From: a virus
Taxonomy: Duplodnaviria > Heunggongvirae > Uroviricota > Caudoviricetes
Length of the DNA stretch: 11,438 nucleotides
IMG/VR virus record: IMGVR_UViG_2778261246_000003
Strand: one strand, 5' to 3'
A program made the translations under genes and the position numbers. This document shows, in pieces, positions 1 through 11,438 of this stretch (positions within the stretch are counted from its first letter, which is position 1; each line of letters begins with the position of its first letter). The notes below the pieces were generated by a model. The model searched no databases. It worked only from the letters and a program-made list of their open reading frames with translations, and was not told the DNA's origin.

Positions 1-140
1 TCTGAGGCAGCACCTGGCACGGCTGGGACGGAAGTCGCTGTCGTTCTCAAAATCGGTGGAGCTGCATGACAAAGTCATCGGGCATTATCTGAACATAAAA
101 CACTATCAATAAGTTGGAGTCATTACCACAAAAGTAATCC

Positions 141-170
141 TTGCTATGGGTGGTTAATCATGCGTTAATG
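141..170 (+). promoter_or_regulatory. Candidate sigma70 promoter of the cold-shock gene (cspA-like: -35 TTGCTA, 18-nt spacer, -10 TTAATG), followed by a long (~145 nt) 5' UTR
   Basis: TTGCTA at 141-146 and TTAATG at 165-170 resemble the cspA promoter layout (TTGCAT ... ATGCGTGGCTTAATG) as I recall it. An AT-rich stretch lies upstream. The long leader before the ATG at 322 is typical of csp mRNAs. Not verified experimentally. Confidence 0.35.
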
Positions 171-321
171 GTGTTCTGGTTTGTTACAAATTTATCTGAA
201 GCAGTCATTGTTATAATTTTATTATTTGTACCTCTTGAGATTTCCTTGTTGGTTTTTCTCTCTGATATTTTTTTTTCGGACCATTCTGCCCAAGGGCTAA
301 TTTCTTCAAAAGGTAATAATT

Positions 322-534
322 ATGTCTAACAAAATGACTGGTTTAGTGAAATGGTTTAACCCTGAAAAAGGTTTTGGTTTCATCACGCCGAAAGATGGCA
401 GCAAAGATGTGTTTGTCCATTTCTCAGCAATTCAGAGCAACGATTTCAAAACATTAACTGAGAATCAGGAAGTTGAATTTGGTATTGAGAACGGACCTAA
501 AGGTCCTGCCGCTGTTCATGTAGTGGCGCTTTGA
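322..534 (+). CDS. cspI: CspA-family cold-shock protein (70 aa), prophage-borne paralog
   Basis: The translation [34 protein letters not shown]... carries the RNP1-like KGFGFI and RNP2-like VFVHF motifs of the cold-shock domain. The RBS AAAGGTAATAATT-ATG is near-identical to the cspA RBS. Paralog assignment (CspI versus CspG/CspB) is from memory and uncertain; the family call is confident. Confidence 0.9.
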
Positions 535-622
535 GGTAGACAATATTACAAACCATATTCACTTTAGATGCCCGTGTTGTCATGGTTCCCAGTATAGAAC
601 ATCATCTTTTGATGTTTCTGAC

Positions 623-733
623 ATGAATCCTTTCGGGGCAAAATGTATCTTTTGTAAATCAATGATGATTACATTTGATAATATTTCACAATACTTAAAT
701 GCCAGCCGTCTGTCGTTGGATTTAATAAAGTGA
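623..733 (+). CDS. Small Cys-rich protein (possible zinc ribbon; resembles the small ORFs that follow prophage csp genes, YmcF/YnfQ-like)
   Basis: The frame is open from 524 to the TGA at 731-733 and encodes ...RCPCCHGSQYRTSSFDVSDMNPFGAKCIFCKSMMITFDNISQYLNASRLSLDLIK. The first ATG is at 623, so the CPCC half-site would need a non-canonical start upstream. The ORF ends 6 nt before a strong intrinsic terminator. Too small to appear in the supplied ORF track. Confidence 0.3.
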   Translation: MNPFGAKCIFCKSMMITFDNISQYLNASRLSLDLIK

Positions 734-738
734 AAATG

Positions 739-761
739 AAGGCTCCTTCGGGAGCTTTTTT
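739..761 (+). terminator. Rho-independent terminator of the csp transcription unit
   Basis: GC stem GCTCC/GGAGC closed by a UUCG tetraloop (742-755), extendable with flanking A/T pairs, followed by TTTTTT (756-761). Confidence 0.6.
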
Positions 762-805
762 GCTTGGTGTCTATTCGATGGATACTCACATACTACGGTA
801 ACATC

Positions 806-1036
806 ATGAAAAAAATCATAGTTTTTTTTAACTCTGAACCAGCAGTGGTAGTGCCAGCGATGACTGGAGTTAACACCATCATGCGTGAATATCCAAATGG
901 CGAAAAAACACACCTTACTGTAATGGCCGCAGGGTTTCCATCTCTGACCGGAGATCATAAAGTCATTTATGTAGCCGCGGATCGACATGTTACTTCAGAA
1001 GAAATTCTGGAAGCAGCAATAAGGCTCTTGAGTTGA
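806..1036 (+). CDS. Hypothetical 76-aa protein (position and size as for the small ORF between csp and gns in E. coli; YmcE-like?)
   Basis: ATG at 806 (MKKIIVFFNSEPAVVVP...) lies after the upstream terminator; the longer track ORF from 764 would start inside that terminator. The RBS is weak. No recognisable motif. Confidence 0.4.
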   Translation: MKKIIVFFNSEPAVVVPAMTGVNTIMREYPNGEKTHLTVMAAGFPSLTGDHKVIYVAADRHVTSEEILEAAIRLLS

Positions 1037-1207
1037 TTTGATGCTATTGCATTGATAATTCAGGAAAATTCTCTTTGTCTGTTTGTGTAAAATTTAGACT
1101 ATCGTATGTTGATTATTGCGATGTTTCATCTTATCTTTTACACGTTTGCACCATATAATCGACTTACTGTGTAACTGGAAAGTCATAACAGACTAAAAGA
1201 GGAAATG

Positions 1208-1381
1208 ATGAATATTGAAAACTTAAAAACAAAAGCAGAAGCAGATATTTCTGAATATATAACAAAAAAAATTATTGAACTTAAGAAAAAGACCGGGAAA
1301 GAAGTTACCAGTATTCAGTTTACCGCACGGGAAAAAATGACGGGTCTTGAAAGCTATGATGTCAAGATTAATTTAATCTGA
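1208..1381 (+). CDS. gnsB: GnsA/GnsB-family protein (57 aa; overexpression suppressor of secG/fabA phenotypes in E. coli)
   Basis: The translation MNIENLKTKAEADISEYITKKIIELKKKTGKEVTSIQFTAREKMTGLESYDVKINLI matches the Gns family from memory (conserved FTAREKMTGLESYDVKI). A strong SD (AAGAGGA) lies 4 nt upstream of the ATG at 1208. Below the 60-aa cutoff of the ORF track. The A/B paralog call is uncertain. Confidence 0.8.
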   Translation: MNIENLKTKAEADISEYITKKIIELKKKTGKEVTSIQFTAREKMTGLESYDVKINLI

Positions 1382-1407
1382 TGTATTCAATAATAAAATT
1401 TATCCAT

Positions 1408-1433
1408 AAACCTCGTTTTTACGGGGTTTTGTT
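1408..1433 (+). terminator. Probable intrinsic terminator downstream of gns
   Basis: Hairpin CCTCG-TTTTTA-CGGGG (one G:U pair) followed by TTTTGTT. It may act bidirectionally for the convergent minus-strand gene. Confidence 0.35.
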
Positions 1434-1532
1434 ATATTTGAATGGTTCCGAATATCTAAATCACAATTGTTGATGGTTTTTATTAAACCAATGCAGTCCG
1501 GCTCAGGAGTGAGAGAAGCCGGACGTTATGGT

Positions 1533-1943
1533 TTAGCGTGGTAAGATCTGTGTAGTTTTCTGGATGCTTTCAGTAAATAGTAATGAATTATCAAAGGTAT
1601 AGTAATATCTTTTTTGTTCGTGGATATTTGTAACCCACCGAAAAACTCCTGCTTTAGCAAGGTTTCTTCTGTATTCCTGAAATGTGATCTCTCTGGATTT
1701 CAGCTTATTAGAGGTCGTTTCTATAAGATGCCTATCCTTTGAAAATTTGACAGACACAATGTTTTTTAGGCCCTTTAATAACACTGTATTATCATTTTTT
1801 AATACAATATGAACATTCTCTGTGGCTAAATAGTAAATGTAATGTGAGACATTGTGACGTTTTAGCTCAGAATAAAACCATTGATAGTTTAAATCGTTTC
1901 GAACTTTATCAAATATTTGTTTAAAAATGACTACCTGATCCAT
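1533..1943 (-). CDS. Hypothetical low-GC protein (136 aa); position and size consistent with the YdfO/YbcV (DUF1398) family of lambdoid prophages
   Basis: Minus-strand ORF. I prefer the internal start MDQVVIF... because GGAAGG lies 7 nt upstream of it; the track start at 1958 has no SD. Strongly AT-rich. Family assignment is by context and size and is tentative. Confidence 0.6.
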
Positions 1944-2000
1944 AGATAAACCTTCCATGTGATATGAGGGGGCGTAGTCTGCACGATTATCTAAATTGCT

Positions 2001-2234
2001 TCAATCTGGTCTGACCTGTTTTCTGAGCAATTCAGTAATGTCACTCTTTTCTTTGTTTGCTTCAGGAGAAACTCTTTTTTCTGAGCACAGTCTCCGGCGG
2101 CAGGCTTCAATGACCCAGGCTGAGAAATTCCCGGACCCTTTTTGATCAAGAGCGATGTTAATTTGTTCAATCATTTGTTTAGGAAAGCGGATGTTGCGGG
2201 TTGTTGTTCTGCGGGTTCTGTTCTTCGTTGACAT
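2001..2234 (-). CDS. Small basic protein (77 aa), YdfK/YnaE-like, encoded at the extreme right end of the lambda-like phage genome
   Basis: Translation MSTKNRTRRTTTRNIRFPKQMIEQINIALDQKGSGNFSAWVIEACRRRL... The DNA from its start codon to cos matches the lambda right end from memory. Family name recalled, not verified. Confidence 0.5.
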   Translation of the reverse strand: MSTKNRTRRTTTRNIRFPKQMIEQINIALDQKGSGNFSAWVIEACRRRLCSEKRVSPEANKEKSDITELLRKQVRPD

Positions 2235-2394
2235 GAGGTTGTCCCGTATTCAGTGTCGCTGATTTGTATTGTCTGAAGTTGTTTTTACGTTAAGTTGATG
2301 CAGATCAATTAATACGATACCTGCGTCATAATTGATTATTTGACGTGGTTTGATGGCGTAGATGCACGTTGTGACATGTAGATGATAATTATTA

Positions 2395-2620
2395 TCATTT
2401 TTCGGGTCCTTTCCGGCGATCCGACAGGTTACGGGGCGGCGACCTCGCGGGTTTTCGCTATTTATGAAAATTTTCCGGTTTAAGGCGTTTCCGTTCTTCT
2501 TCGTCGTAACTTAATGTTTTTATTTAAAATACCCCCTGAAAAGAAAGGAAACGACAGGTGCTGAAAGCGAGCTTTTTGGCCTCTGTCGTTTCCTTTCTCT
2601 GTTTTTGTCCGTGGAATGAA
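2395..2620 (+). other. Phage cos region (cosQ - cosN - cosB), the terminase recognition and cleavage site
   Basis: ...GATCCGACAGGTTACG (lambda right end, cosQ side) is followed by GGGCGGCGACCTCGCGGGTTTTCGCTATTTATGAAAATTTTCCGGTTTAAGGCG..., which is the lambda left end as I recall it. The Nu1-binding R elements and IHF site are expected in 2446-2620; I did not map them individually. Confidence 0.85.
2434..2445 (+). other. cosN: the 12-nt cohesive-end sequence GGGCGGCGACCT (staggered terminase nicking site)
   Basis: Exact match to the lambda 12-nt 5' overhang, located between right-end and left-end homology. Confidence 0.85.
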
Positions 2621-2622
2621 CA

Positions 2623-3142
2623 ATGGAAGTCAACAAAAAGCAGCTGGCTGACATTTTCGGTGCGAGTATCCGTACCATTCAGAACTGGCAGGAACAGGGA
2701 ATGCCCGTTCTGCGAGGCGGTGGCAAGGGTAATGAGGTGCTTTATGACTCTGCCGCCGTTATAAAATGGTATGCCGAAAGGGATGCTGAAATTGAGAACG
2801 AAAAGCTGCGCCGGGAGGTTGAAGAACTGCGCCAGGCCAGCGAGGCAGATCTCCAGCCAGGGACTATTGCGTACGAACGCCATCGACTTACGCGTGCGCA
2901 GGCCGACGCACAGGAACTGAAGAATGCCAGAGACTCAGCTGAAGTGGTGGAAACCGCATTCTGTACTTTCGTGCTGTCGCGGATCGCAGGTGAAATTGCC
3001 AGTATTCTCGACGGGATCCCCCTGTCGGTGCAGCGGCGTTTTCCGGAACTGGAAAACCGACATGTTGATTTCCTGAAACGGGATATCATCAAAGCCATGA
3101 ACAAAGCAGCCGCGCTGGATGAACTGATACCGGGGTTGCTGA

Positions 3143-3168
<26 letters not shown>
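2623..3168 (+). CDS. nu1: Terminase small subunit Nu1 (181 aa)
   Basis: The translation (MEVNKKQLADIFGASIRTIQNWQEQGMPVLRGGGKGNEVLY...) is essentially lambda gpNu1 with an N-terminal winged-HTH. It sits immediately right of cosB. Confidence 0.97.
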
Positions 3169-6849
<3,681 letters not shown>

Positions 6850-6869
<20 letters not shown>

Positions 6870-8169
6870 TCTCCCGCATATTGCCAGCATGGCTTTTAAT
6901 GAGCCGCTGATGCTTGAACCCGCCTATGCGCGGGTTTTCTTTTGTGCGCTTGCAGGCCAGCTTGGGATCAGTCGCCTGACGGATGCGGTGTCCGGCGACA
7001 GCCTGACTGCCGGAGAGGCACCCGCGGCGCTGGCGTTATCCGGTGATGATGACGGACCACGACAGGCCCGCAGTTATCAGGTCATGAACGGCATCGCCGT
7101 GCTGCCGGTGTCCGGTACGCTGGTCAGCCGGACGCGGGCGCTGCAGCCGTATTCGGGAATGACCGGTTACAACGGCATTATCGCCCGTCTGCAACAGGCT
7201 GCCAGCGATCCGATGGTGGACGGCATTCTGCTCGATATGGACACACCGGGCGGGATGGTGGCGGGAGCATTTGACTGTGCTGACATCATCGCCCGTGTGC
7301 GAGACATAAAACCGGTATGGGCGCTGGCCAACGACATGAACTGCAGTGCAGGTCAGCTGCTTGCCAGCGCCGCCTCCCGGCGTCTGGTCACGCAGACCGC
7401 CCGGACAGGCTCCATCGGCGTCATGATGGCTCACAGTAATTACGGTGCTGCGCTGGAGAAACAGGGCGTGGAAATCACGCTGATTTACAGCGGCAGCCAT
7501 AAGGTGGATGGCAACCCCTACAGCCATCTTCCGGATGACGTCCGGGAGACACTGCAGTCCCGGATGGATGCAACCCGCCGGATGTTTGCGCAGAAGGTGT
7601 CGGCATATACCGGCCTGTCCGTGCAGGCTGTGCTGGATACCGAGGCTGCAGTGTACAGCGGTCAGGAGGCCATTGATGCCGGACTGGCTGATGAACTTGT
7701 CAACAGCACCGATGCGATCACCGTTATGCGTGATGCACTGGATGCACGTAAATCCCGTCTCTCAGGAGGGCGAATGACCAAAGAGACTCAATCAACAACT
7801 GTTTCAGCCACTGCTTCGCAGGCTGACGTTACTGACGTGGTGCCAGCGACGGAGGGCGAAAACGCCAGCGCGGCGCAGCCGGACGTGAACGCGCAGATCA
7901 CCGCTGCGGTTGCGGCAGAAAACAGCCGCATTATGGGGATCCTCAACTGTGAGGAGGCTCACGGACGCGAAGAACAGGCCCGCGTGCTGGCAGAAACCCC
8001 CGGTATGACCGTGGAAACGGCCCGCCGCATTCTGGCCGCAGCACCACAGAGTGCACAGGCGCGCAGTGACACTGCGCTGGATCGTCTGATGCAGGGGGCA
8101 CCGGCACCGCTGGTTGCAGGTAACCCGGCATCTGATGCCGTTAACGATTTGCTGAACACACCAGTGTAA
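6850..8169 (+). CDS. C: Head maturation protease / minor capsid protein C (439 aa, GTG start)
   Basis: Matches lambda gpC (VTAELRNLPHIASMAFNEPLMLEPAYARVFF...). GTG at 6850 is preceded by AGGAGAAGAG and overlaps the end of B by 20 nt. The track ORF from 6715 is an upstream in-frame extension without support. Confidence 0.9.
7564..8169 (+). CDS. nu3: Scaffolding protein Nu3 (201 aa), translated in-frame from an internal start within C
   Basis: Lambda Nu3 shares the reading frame and stop of C. Applying the lambda C-to-Nu3 offset to this window lands exactly on an in-frame ATG (MDATRRMFAQKV...). Coordinates recalled from the lambda map, not recomputed by alignment. Confidence 0.7.
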   Translation: MDATRRMFAQKVSAYTGLSVQAVLDTEAAVYSGQEAIDAGLADELVNSTDAITVMRDALDARKSRLSGGRMTKETQSTTVSATASQADVTDVVPATEGENASAAQPDVNAQITAAVAAENSRIMGILNCEEAHGREEQARVLAETPGMTVETARRILAAAPQSAQARSDTALDRLMQGAPAPLVAGNPASDAVNDLLNTPV

Positions 8170-8178
8170 GGGATGTTT

Positions 8179-8511
8179 ATGACGAGCAAAGAAACCTTTA
8201 CCCATTACCAGCCGCAGGGCAACAGTGACCCGGCTCATACCGCAACCGCGCCCGGCGGATTGAGTGCGAAAGCGCCTGCAATGACCCCGCTGATGCTGGA
8301 CACCTCCACCCGTAAGCTGGTTGCGTGGGATGGCACCACCGACGGTGCTGCCGTTGGCATTCTTGCAGTTGCTGCTGACCAGACCAGCACCACACTGACG
8401 TTCTACAAGTCCGGCACGTTCCGTTATGAGGATGTGCTCTGGCCGGAGGCTGCCAGCGACGAGACGAAAAAACGGACCGCGTTTGCCGGAACGGCAATCA
8501 GCATCGTTTAA
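8179..8511 (+). CDS. D: Head decoration protein D (110 aa)
   Basis: [41 protein letters not shown]... matches lambda gpD. SD AAGGGA lies 5 nt upstream of the ATG at 8179. The track start at 8173 adds two codons that I reject. Confidence 0.95.
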
Positions 8512-8530
8512 CTTTACCCTTCATCACTAA

Positions 8531-8553
8531 AGGCCGCCTGTGCGGCTTTTTTT
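8531..8553 (+). terminator. Hairpin plus T-run between D and E (terminator-like; probably read through in the antiterminated late transcript)
   Basis: GCCGC-CTGT-GCGGC stem-loop followed by TTTTTTT. It sits in the D-E intergenic region of the late operon. Confidence 0.35.
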
Positions 8554-8566
8554 ACGGGATTTTTTT

Positions 8567-8842
8567 ATGTCGATGTACACAACCGCCCAGCTGCTGGCGG
8601 CAAATGAGCAGAAATTTAAGTTTGATCCGCTGTTTCTGCGTCTCTTTTTCCGTGAGAGCTATCCCTTCACCACGGAGAAAGTCTATCTCTCACAAATTCC
8701 GGGACTGGTAAACATGGCGCTGTACGTTTCGCCGATTGTTTCCGGTGAGGTTATCCGCTCCCGTGGCGGCTCCACCTCTGAATTTACACCGGGATATGTC
8801 AAGCCGAAGCACTTAGCATGGCTTTCTGAGGCTTTCGTGTAG
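8567..8842 (+). pseudogene. E: Major capsid protein E, 5' fragment only (codons 1-82 of ~341), fused to 9 unrelated codons and a stop
   Basis: MSMYTTAQLLAANEQKFKFDPLFLRLFFRESYPFTTEKVYLSQIPGLVNMALYVSPIVSGEVIRSRGGSTSEFTPGYVKPKH matches the lambda gpE N-terminus. After codon 82 (CAC at 8810-8812) the sequence becomes LAWLSEAFV-stop instead of EVNPQMTLRR.... Confidence 0.85.
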
Positions 8843-8974
8843 TTGCTGGTTTTTACACTTAATCTTTTGATAATAAAGAATAAGTTTATCTGGCGCTTTC
8901 ACTGAATTTTCCTCGTTATCTGTGTGTTGCAATCATCTCTGTATTGCAGCTTGTATTGCTTTTTGGGGCTAAAA

Positions 8975-10210
8975 ATGGCTGGCGAGAACAAACTGAGCGA
9001 CAAAGCGCTTAAAGGATATCTGGGGAAACCCAGAGAAAAGCAGATCACCATTGCTGATGGAAAGGGGCTTTCTATTCGTGTGAGTACTAAAGGGGCTGTG
9101 AGCTTTGTTTTCTTCTACAGGTTAGCAGGTGGCCGGGCTGCTCCGGTCTGGCTAACGTTGGGTAAATATCCTGATATGTCACTCAAACAGGCAAGGGAAA
9201 AGCGCGACGAGTGCCGTGGTTGGTTGGCTGACAAACGTGATCCGCGTATCCAGATTAAGATTCAGGCTGAAGAACGCTTAAAGCCGGTCACAGTGGAGGA
9301 TGCACTAAATTACTGGTATGAAAATTACTGTAAGGTGCGTCGTAAAACTCATGCTGTAACGCTTGGCAGATTTCGAAAGCATATCTTTCCCTATATCGGT
9401 CATTTGCCCGTAAATGACACTCACCTATATGAATGGCTGGACTGTTTTGACCGAATTAAACGTAATGCACCAGTTATGGCGGCGTATGTTTTTTCTGACA
9501 CTAAATTAGCTCTTCGTTTTTGTCGGGTACGCCAGTACGCGACGTGTGATGCTTTAAAGGATTTGCGCATGAGTGATGTGGGGCAGATTGCAGGTAAGCG
9601 GGATCGGGTTCTGGATGAAGCCGAACTCGGCCAGCTCTGGAAGGCAATTTTTGTCGAGCCTGATTTAAAACTAATGTCTGAATACACGCGAAAAATGTTT
9701 GTGCTTTGTACAGTATTTGGATGTCGAATGAGTGAAGCCCGATTATCAGAATGGAGCGAATGGGATCTCGAAAGTTGGGTTTGGACTGTACCAAAAGATC
9801 ACTCAAAAACTGGTGTTGAAATCGTCAGACCAGTACCTGAAATTCTACGACAGTGGGTAACGGATGTTCACGAAGAGACAAAACATACTGGTTATGTGCT
9901 GGGAAGTCTGCGAATTAGAGAAAGCGTAAGCAAGATTGGGGGGAAAATCGGTAAACGTTTGGGCCATGAAAAACAATGGTCACTACACGACCTTAGAAGA
10001 ACGCTATCTACTCATCTAAGTGATCTCGGTGTTGAATTTTATGTAGTAGAACAACTGTTAGGCCATGCGCTACCTGGCGTGGCAGGTGTTTACAATCGGA
10101 GTAAGTTTATGGCTAAAAAACTGGATGCTCTGGAACTCTGGACTACATATCTCAATAGCATCGCAGGTGCTGATTCAAAAGTGACAATCCTCAAACAAAA
10201 GGCTGGTTAA
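8975..10210 (+). CDS. int: Tyrosine recombinase / phage integrase, P4 (CP4-57 IntA)-like with N-terminal arm-binding domain (411 aa)
   Basis: The N-terminus LSDKALKGYLGKPREKQITIADGKGLSIRVSTKGAVSFVFFYR fits the DUF4102-type arm-binding domain. The C-terminus has catalytic-box-like HDLRRT and GHALPGVAGVYNRS (candidate Tyr). I prefer the ATG at 8975 (GGGG 6 nt upstream) to the GTG at 8924 used by the track. Confidence 0.9.
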   Translation: MAGENKLSDKALKGYLGKPREKQITIADGKGLSIRVSTKGAVSFVFFYRLAGGRAAPVWLTLGKYPDMSLKQAREKRDECRGWLADKRDPRIQIKIQAEERLKPVTVEDALNYWYENYCKVRRKTHAVTLGRFRKHIFPYIGHLPVNDTHLYEWLDCFDRIKRNAPVMAAYVFSDTKLALRFCRVRQYATCDALKDLRMSDVGQIAGKRDRVLDEAELGQLWKAIFVEPDLKLMSEYTRKMFVLCTVFGCRMSEARLSEWSEWDLESWVWTVPKDHSKTGVEIVRPVPEILRQWVTDVHEETKHTGYVLGSLRIRESVSKIGGKIGKRLGHEKQWSLHDLRRTLSTHLSDLGVEFYVVEQLLGHALPGVAGVYNRSKFMAKKLDALELWTTYLNSIAGADSKVTILKQKAG

Positions 10211-10211
10211 C

Positions 10212-10439
10212 ATGAAAAAAATGGCAATTGTTGATAAAAAGGGTCTGGAGTACATTCCTAACATTGATCGTATGATCCGTGAGAAAGAATGTCGGGAGCT
10301 AACCACTCTTGCGAACAGCACACGCTGGAAGCTGGAGAAGGAAGGAAAATTTCCTAAGCGGATCAAGATTGGCGCTACTGCGGTAGCTTACCGTCTCTCC
10401 GAAGTTCAGGCATGGATTAAGGGAGAATGGAGTAATTAA
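10212..10439 (+). CDS. alpA: AlpA-family (Xis/Vis-like) small DNA-binding regulator (75 aa)
   Basis: ...ECRELTTLANSTRWKLEKEGKFPKRIKIGATAVAYRLSEVQAWIKGE matches the AlpA/MerR-like HTH signature (GKFPKxIKxG...VAxRxSEVxAWI). It starts 1 nt after the integrase stop. The start could instead be the ATG at 10221. Confidence 0.75.
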   Translation: MKKMAIVDKKGLEYIPNIDRMIREKECRELTTLANSTRWKLEKEGKFPKRIKIGATAVAYRLSEVQAWIKGEWSN

Positions 10440-10457
10440 ATAATAAGGTATTTCGAT

Positions 10458-11279
10458 ATGACAATGTGTGTTATTTGGAAGTCAGTTGATGGAACTATTT
10501 ATGCCGCCACAGATTCTCGACTGAGCTTTGAAGAAAAAAAGTTAGATCGTTGCGTTAAAATATCCCGAATCACATGTCTTTTACATGAGCCTAGTGATGC
10601 AGTAGATACAAGTAAGATACTTGTTGATAAGCGTGAGATTGCTACATTATTCTGTGGAGGCTTTACAAATGCCTATATCATCAAGGAGAGCCTTACTGAG
10701 ATTTTAAATAAAATAGTTCTCATGAGGGAATACTCCGGCGTGCCCTTTTCGGAAATTATAGATATAGCGTTTTCCATTTATGAAGATACATCAAGAGATA
10801 TGTTTGCATCATTAATGGACCAACGATTTGGATGTGTTTTTTACATGATAAGTTACTGCCCTGTATATAAGGAAATGCAAGCATTTAAATTTGAATTCAA
10901 AATAAATGAAAACGGTATTAACTATTATAAATCTAAACTTTTTGAAGATCGTAACTATGAGGTTAATGGAAGTGGGGTGAGGTACTTGGAACAAAATCAT
11001 CGTATTGAAGATCTAGTTAAAGAAGCTTATCAGAAGAATAAATACACACCACTTCTAGATATACTTGAGTCCGTAATTAATGATGACGACTGTGACTCTG
11101 TTGGAGGTGCAATGCAATACATTTCATGTAATAAAGATAGACTAAAATTGTGTTGTCATATGTTATTTGAAGAAAATAATCATAAGTATATGAAAGCTGG
11201 GGTGGACTTAAATGAACTCAATGAGAAGTTTATACCTTCTGGTTTGTTTTTTGAGACAGATGCAATCATCAAAAGATAA
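10458..11279 (+). CDS. Uncharacterised AT-rich protein (273 aa); no confident family assignment; possible N-terminal-nucleophile hydrolase-like N-terminus
   Basis: Long ORF in very AT-rich DNA with a start 18 nt after alpA. The N-terminus MTMCVIWKSVDGTIYAATDSR resembles the N-terminal strand of proteasome-beta/HslV-type Ntn hydrolases (T/C nucleophile - hydrophobic - DG - hydrophobic - A(A/G)xDSR). This is pattern-level only. Confidence 0.7.
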   Translation: MTMCVIWKSVDGTIYAATDSRLSFEEKKLDRCVKISRITCLLHEPSDAVDTSKILVDKREIATLFCGGFTNAYIIKESLTEILNKIVLMREYSGVPFSEIIDIAFSIYEDTSRDMFASLMDQRFGCVFYMISYCPVYKEMQAFKFEFKINENGINYYKSKLFEDRNYEVNGSGVRYLEQNHRIEDLVKEAYQKNKYTPLLDILESVINDDDCDSVGGAMQYISCNKDRLKLCCHMLFEENNHKYMKAGVDLNELNEKFIPSGLFFETDAIIKR

Positions 11280-11375
11280 ACGATAACCGACTTTGATTGT
11301 GATAATTTTATTGAGCTGGCCCCCTGAAATACCAGACAGTAGATGTATCTTAAAATAAGAGATAGGCTTGGATAT

Positions 11376-11438
11376 ATGTCTAACACTAGTTCTAATTTTG
11401 AGATGGCTGGCGTTTTGTTAGGAAAAGAGGTGCGTAAA
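11376..11438 (+). CDS. 5' end of a further ORF (MSNTSSNFEMAGVLLGKEVRK...), running off the window
   Basis: ATG at 11376 with an open frame to the window edge, about 95 nt downstream of the 273-aa gene on the same strand. Too short to classify. Confidence 0.3.
   Translation, partial: MSNTSSNFEMAGVLLGKEVRK

Follow-up and report, generated by a model that had tools for sequence, protein, structure and literature searches.

The closest described counterparts of the element analyzed here are helper-embedded phage-inducible chromosomal islands (HE-PICIs), whose prototype, Eco567.11capE, was found in Escherichia coli NRG857c; 201 instances are reported at its site, E:Phage_cap_E:80 (Tommasini, Mageeney & Williams 2023, NAR Genom Bioinform, PMC10111431). 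After mitomycin C treatment, the whole composite of helper prophage and prototype satellite excises from the chromosome and replicates, and the satellite itself excises later (42-98% at 2-3 h), giving the predicted attB and attP as measured by quantitative PCR and deep sequencing (PMC10111431). EcCICFT073 (Fillol-Salom et al. 2018, PMC6092414), a classical Gram-negative cos-type PICI, has the same order of int, alpA, variable zone, primase and late zone over ~11 kb; its helper too is lambdoid and its packaging is presumed to use cos, but it occupies a chromosomal site and acts on its helper only in trans. Satellite P4 also has an int-alpA (vis-like) module, a D5-type primase and an integrase from a related clade. 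The locus examined here is a stretch of 11,438 nucleotides (the window) from a tailed-phage record, IMG/VR IMGVR_UViG_2778261246_000003, in which genes for an integrase (int), an AlpA-family regulator (alpA) and a 273-residue cargo protein (ORF273, for its open reading frame) follow one another. The original prediction read positions 8813-11438 as the start of a P4-like or PICI-type element. We conclude that positions 8812-11311 are very probably the left (integration-zone) end of an HE-PICI of group E:Phage_cap_E:80, of the same family as Eco567.11capE and co-oriented with the helper late operon. HE-PICIs and other Gram-negative PICIs are built of four zones, for integration (int, alpA), for variable genes (the dynamic zone), for replication (primase, SSB) and for captured late genes, and they lack tail and lysis genes. 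Of these, the window contains the first zone and the beginning of the dynamic one; the satellite body lies outside it, and its layout is taken from relatives. The arrangement was described in 2023 and is frequent in E. coli; a satellite in a capsid gene is thus already known, and the window is one more instance, bearing an insertion sequence (IS). Only the ORF273 cargo is possibly new.

The interrupted capsid gene and its att sites

Positions 1-8811 are the late region of a lambda-like prophage, the helper of the satellite. The major capsid gene of this prophage is represented by a truncated version, E', which matches Pfam Phage_cap_E over model positions 1-78 of 329 only and is followed by int on the same strand; PGAP labels the corresponding gene of relatives "major capsid protein, missing C-terminus". 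The 10-bp sequence AGCCGAAGCA was located at 8802-8811 of the window (attL), at 31457-31466 of the complete genome L001 (attR) and at codon 79 of lambda gene E (attB), and it is also present at attR of the relatives L004, L006, L007, and L009; attR itself is outside the window and was observed in these relatives. The flanks of attL in the window, attB in lambda and attR in L001 align perfectly across this core on the appropriate sides. Joining the left piece from the window to the right piece from L001 yields a 1026-nt open reading frame of 341 residues that is identical to lambda gpE at 250 of 255 positions over the part compared. Of 5426 complete E. coli genomes, 173 have the E'-int-alpA junction. 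In complete genomes of relatives the missing 789 bases of gene E come ~11.5 kb after it, and behind them lie FI, FII, Z, U, V, G, T, H and onward to J of the same prophage. On the basis of the split at the core, the shared 10-mer and the lambda-like gpE obtained by rejoining, we conclude that the element is an integrative island that interrupts the helper prophage's major capsid gene at codon ~80 (core in codons 79-82). This embedding was absent from the original prediction. The predicted element start at 8813 proved correct to within a base because the attL core ends at 8811.

The adjacency of an integrase gene to phage structural genes might also be expected if a second prophage abutted the first, so that the boundary would be one between tandem prophages rather than the edge of a satellite. 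In relatives, however, the interrupted gene E continues precisely from the 10-bp core 11.5 kb further on, with FI, FII, Z, U, V through J of the same prophage behind it. The int gene, moreover, faces into the element with alpA next in line, a signature of satellites and not of prophages. We therefore rejected this explanation, to which we assign almost no probability.

The satellite splits gene E and carries no replacement for the missing sequence, and precise excision would rebuild the gene. The predicted restored attB reads ...TATGTCAAGCCGAAGCATGAAGTGAATCC..., and the predicted attP junction of the excised satellite reads ...TGACTCATGTAGCCGAAGCACTTAGCATGGC.... In contrast to EcCICFT073, the window element sits inside a helper late gene, which it thereby disrupts, and this position allows its replication and transcription in cis. 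A parasite within its helper's capsid gene, such that the helper would build heads only once the satellite leaves, is among the more striking satellite-helper arrangements. For annotation, the lesson is that a truncated capsid gene next to an integrase gene in a lambdoid prophage indicates an HE-PICI and not prophage decay. The E' frame stays open for 91 codons, comprising 82 lambda-like residues and a short satellite-encoded tail, and thus, as long as the satellite stays integrated, the late transcript could yield a truncated N-terminal fragment of gpE.

Assignment to the HE-PICI family

The same-strand order of int, alpA and cargo that had been proposed was borne out by the open reading frames and Pfam matches (Table 1). 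All three genes are on the plus strand, with the alpA start codon 1 nt past the int stop codon and a gap of 18 nt before ORF273. The mechanical integrase reading frame begins at GTG 8924; the 411 residues are counted from the ATG at 8975, and the sequence shows the R..HxxR..H..Y residues. This integrase is identical at 410 of 411 positions to that of Eco567.11capE (protein from NC_017634), a pairwise identity that assigns it to the HE-PICI clade, and AlpA matches the prototype protein at 71 of 73 positions (NC_017634). HE-PICIs carry a specific doubled motif, tgTGTATTGCantgTGTATTGCa, at +132 ± 2 and -81 ± 2 bp from the attP center (PMC10111431). The doubled TGTATTGC motif has one exact match in the window, compared to none in 200 shuffled sequences, and it starts 133 bp from the center of the attL core; a second copy, seen in relatives only, lies 82 bp before the center of the attR core. 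Binding of Int or AlpA at this putative site, 16 bp before the int start, could autoregulate int. A scan for promoters and terminators performed no better than shuffles and was not used as evidence.

The window thus combines a gene E split with int on the same strand, the 10-bp identity block, the HE-PICI integrase and the doubled motif at +133. The element shares with Eco567.11capE its target (codon ~80 of a lambda-like gene E), its element-side attL sequence, which matches the attL alignment in the supplement of the HE-PICI study (PMC10111431), the doubled TGTATTGC motif with its spacing, an integrase of 99.8% identity and an AlpA of 97% identity. In relatives the replication and late zones match as well, and the capsid and decoration proteins of L001 share the accession numbers of the prototype proteins. 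The two elements differ in their core, AGCCGAAGCA here and AACCCAAGCA in the prototype, where both variants appear in the published table and the supplement lists AGCCGAAGCA as the identity block of E_Phage_cap_E_80 HE-PICIs (PMC10111431). They also differ in the first variable slot, which holds ORF273 and a SWIM-like gene here versus a 178-residue hypothetical protein and YlcI/YnfO in the prototype, and in the IS3-family insertion past the cargo in the window genome.

The body of the element had been predicted to lie outside the window, and relatives that match the window at 98-99.98% identity as far as position 11311 do continue with the expected primase gene, cos copy and attR. Relatives L006 and L009 are 99.98% identical over 458-11311 and contain an island of 11,486 bp that ends at attR in gene E; CP062853 and GCA_949766905 are examples of records with an intact copy. 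An identical ORF273 protein was found in 81 blocks of public assemblies; 10 of the 10 contexts listed, and the complete genome L001, carry the full body, and the replication and late zones are present in L002 and L016 too. After ORF273, the island order is a SWIM-like gene on the minus strand, an icd-like gene, a DUF4222 gene, a primase gene (D5_N/DUF5906/Pox_D5), a small open reading frame, and a gene for single-stranded DNA-binding protein (SSB), followed by an island Phage_cap_E capsid gene, a decoration gene and a gene for a 127-residue AlpA-like helix-turn-helix protein. The helper cos region is duplicated beyond these, in some relatives together with a Nu1-like (terS) gene, and the island closes with a variable minus-strand slot and attR, after which the remainder of gene E follows. 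The capsid protein encoded by the island of relatives is 42% identical to helper gpE.

The cos copy was recognized as a second blastn match of window positions 2403-2657/2930 inside the satellite body of relatives. The copies (L009 17481-17735, L001 29539-30066, and L016 9759-10013) are 91-97% identical to the helper region, and in 3 of the 3 examined the helper cosN sequence, GGGCGGCGACCT, is replaced by GGGCGTCAGGCG. This change is conserved and does not resemble random decay, and therefore the cohesive ends or nicking site of the satellite may differ from those of the helper.

The gene content of relatives also bears on the two classes of satellite that most resemble this one. In a P4-type satellite or CP4-57-like island, with a P2-like helper and Psu, Delta and Sid acting in capsid-size redirection, an int-alpA pair followed by a D5-type primase would be equally at home, and HE-PICI integrases do sit in a larger clade that includes that of P4 (PMC10111431). 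No Psu, Delta or Sid gene was present among the Pfam and PGAP annotations of full-length relatives, however; the late zone consists of lambda-type Phage_cap_E, HDPD and Nu1 homologues with a lambda-type cos copy, the surrounding helper is lambdoid and not P2-like, and no C4/isrK immunity RNA was detected at the Rfam gathering threshold in the window and L009, where only the prophage cspA thermoregulator matched. The P4 half of the original prediction consequently has a negligible chance of being right, whereas the PICI half agrees with the gene content of relatives and the HE-PICI features described above. A capsid-forming PICI (cfPICI), which builds its entire capsid itself and relies on the helper for tails alone, would account for the major capsid protein, the decoration protein and the occasional Nu1-like small terminase encoded by the islands of relatives. 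These are the only such genes that they carry, and the 11.5-kb island has no gene for a portal, a prohead protease, a large terminase or a connector between head and tail, so the helper must supply these functions; we regard a cfPICI as very improbable. Lacking both Psu/Delta/Sid and a module of portal, protease and large terminase in its relatives, the element is therefore neither P4-like nor a cfPICI, and assignment to the HE-PICIs is retained.

Several observations weigh against this assignment. The int-alpA DNA had no megablast match in 50,697 phage records. Virions or particles have never been recovered even for the prototype (PMC10111431), which leaves mobilization of the family putative. 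The replication zone, the late zone and attR lie beyond the window, in which an IS begins 32 bp past the ORF273 stop codon, and the junction between ORF273 and this IS had no exact match in genome_contigs or metagenome_contigs or in any relative examined.

Order of events and the IS3-family insertion

The order of events proposed for this HE-PICI is taken from experiments on the prototype, and the anatomy, att site, arm motif and identity to the prototype come from the window. The satellite would enter by tyrosine-recombinase crossover at the 10-bp core within codons 79-82 of gene E, and while integrated it would leave the helper without a major capsid protein. As in the prototype, SOS induction would excise and replicate the whole composite. 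We infer that Q-antiterminated late transcription of the helper then continues past D and E' to cover int, alpA and ORF273. The satellite would be excised late by Int, for which AlpA would serve as directionality factor, and gene E would be restored. Packaging and transfer of the satellite are likewise inferred steps: the satellite would be packaged via its own cos copy by the helper terminase, portal and protease, with either capsid protein used.

The predicted span of the element holds as far as position 11311. Identity with all relatives ends there, and the sequence from 11312 matches the ends of elements annotated as IS3 family transposase, such that the last 127 bases of the window are IS DNA and the window ends within the IS. 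Copies of this IS in complete E. coli genomes are partial only, at ≤97% identity, and mostly on plasmids. This pattern could reflect a decayed remnant, in which insertion at 11312 was accompanied by deletion or rearrangement, int, alpA and ORF273 are all that is left, and gene E is permanently broken. The window does stop inside the IS at a junction shared by no relative, and many helpers appear truncated in their chromosomal setting (PMC10111431). Yet simple insertions usually give just such an assembly artifact, with the contig breaking off in a repeated IS. The helper head genes are all intact open reading frames, as are int, alpA and ORF273, and identity to complete islands is 99.98% up to the last base before the IS. 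We consider a remnant rather unlikely; a simple IS insertion with an intact island beyond it is the most likely explanation.

Cargo, variable slots and helper late region

ORF273, which occupies a region of 31-35% GC, is the piece of this element that could repay further work: it encodes a proteasome-like hydrolase that is unannotated in any library, in a slot that holds a TIR-domain candidate defense gene in sibling elements. The protein has no usable Pfam match (also at E ≤ 10, and for all 14 close homologues) and none in PADLOC or NCBIfam; a profile search of PDB sequences gave no match, and Foldseek against viral structures returned only marginal matches to uncharacterized phage proteins. 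Its predicted structure has the features of a T1-type N-terminal nucleophile (Ntn) hydrolase, namely an alpha-beta-beta-alpha Ntn fold, an N-terminal Thr/Ser and equivalents of Asp17, Lys33 and Gly47. Compared to the proteasome-like homologues HslV, BPH, Anbu and PPH/RPC/DPH (Fuchs, Alva & Lupas 2021, PMC8665760), ORF273 has no sequence-level match to Pfam Proteasome or any PDB chain. The model keeps helix H1 as well as H2, the latter described as missing from PPH and RPC (PMC8665760), and the comparison with RPC and DPH is by description only. ORF273 is most likely a predicted accessory N-terminal-threonine hydrolase that is expressed together with int and alpA.

Homologues of ORF273 were found on other mobile elements. 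One with 73% identity is in a Pectobacterium conjugative element, and one with 41% identity adjoins a STAND ATPase gene on an IncFII plasmid. A homologue of 40% identity follows alpA in a different HE-PICI, which cuts the large-terminase gene of an HK97-like Klebsiella prophage. In the loci of this kind (L017-L020, from Klebsiella variicola CP020847 and metagenome contigs), TerL_ATPase is cut at 215 residues, and two or three tandem alpA paralogues precede the ORF273 homologue and an overlapping 179-residue open reading frame that may be a partner gene.

The description of such elements as hotspots for accessory and defense genes agrees with the contents of the slots in siblings. In sibling E:80 elements a TIR-domain protein with a match to PADLOC PDC-S35 occupies the first slot. 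Immediately ahead of attR is a second variable slot (L001 30417-31175, L002 30527-31288, L016 10237-11953, and L008 17940-19256), and in otherwise near-identical satellites it carries different minus-strand defense candidates: PDC-S31 (DUF2971), AbiJ, a PD-T4-2/NsnA-like pair of HEPN and DUF262 genes, and an AF_1680-domain protein. The defense content of HE-PICIs is not discussed in PMC10111431, and a literature search on proteasome-like proteins in phage defense found nothing relevant. Given the occurrence of the ORF273 family on mobile elements and of defense genes in sibling slots, a role in defense or in competition between elements is plausible. A bolder proposal, which we hold to be possible and on balance doubtful, is that ORF273 and ~300 representative clusters form an uncharacterized branch of self-contained proteasome-beta/HslV-like threonine hydrolases, borne by mobile elements (HE-PICIs in capsid and terminase genes, an integrative and conjugative element, and an IncFII plasmid) as single-gene anti-phage or anti-helper effectors that might, for example, cleave a virion-assembly or host protein on infection. 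If that were true, the family would be a new class of defense protein in the first hotspot of helper-embedded satellites.

Table 1. Features of the window, with coordinates in the 11,438-nucleotide stretch.
Feature	Position	Strand	Basis or remark
Cold-shock protein gene (70 residues) with Rfam cspA thermoregulator	175-561		Prophage accessory region; Rfam 112 bits; thermoregulator upstream of and over the gene
GnsAB-family gene	1205-1381		Prophage accessory region; a DUF1398 gene is also near the cold-shock gene
DUF1398 and YlcI/YnfO genes		-	Prophage part of the window
Helper cosN GGGCGGCGACCT	2434-2445	+	Exact lambda cosN string; cos region ~2403-2657
Nu1	2623-3168	+	Intact; Pfam Phage_Nu1
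Terminase A	3143-5068	+	Intact; Pfam GpA_ATPase/GpA_nuclease
W	5065-5271	+	Intact; gene calls in relatives
Portal B	5268-6869	+	Intact; Pfam Phage_portal_2
Protease C	6850-8169	+	Intact; Pfam Peptidase_S49
Decoration D	8173-8511	+	Intact; Pfam HDPD
Truncated major capsid gene E' (helper)	8567-8842	+	Codons 1-82 lambda-like, then satellite DNA; stop after a short non-E tail
attL core/identity block AGCCGAAGCA (crossover region)	8802-8811	+	10-mer shared with attR of relatives and with lambda gene E
Doubled arm-type motif TGTATTGCAGCTTGTATTGC	8940-8959	+	16 bp upstream of int ATG; form TGTATTGC-N4-TGTATTGC
Tyrosine integrase, HE-PICI clade (411 residues from ATG)	8975-10210	+	Pfam Arm-DNA-bind_3 4e-19, Phage_integrase 1e-16
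AlpA-family excisionase/regulator (75 residues)	10212-10439	+	PF05930 6e-15; PHROG 2790 "excisionase and transcriptional regulator"
Cargo ORF273 (273 residues), unannotated, predicted proteasome-beta/HslV-like Ntn-hydrolase fold	10458-11279	+	First variable slot of the satellite
Left end of IS3-family insertion sequence	11312-11438	+	Inverted repeat TGAGCTGGCCCCCTGAAATACC...; orfA ATG near 11412; not satellite DNA

The base composition of the window follows the same division, with a GC fraction of ~0.60 in the prophage that falls to ~0.45 where gene E meets foreign DNA and to 0.31-0.35 further on.

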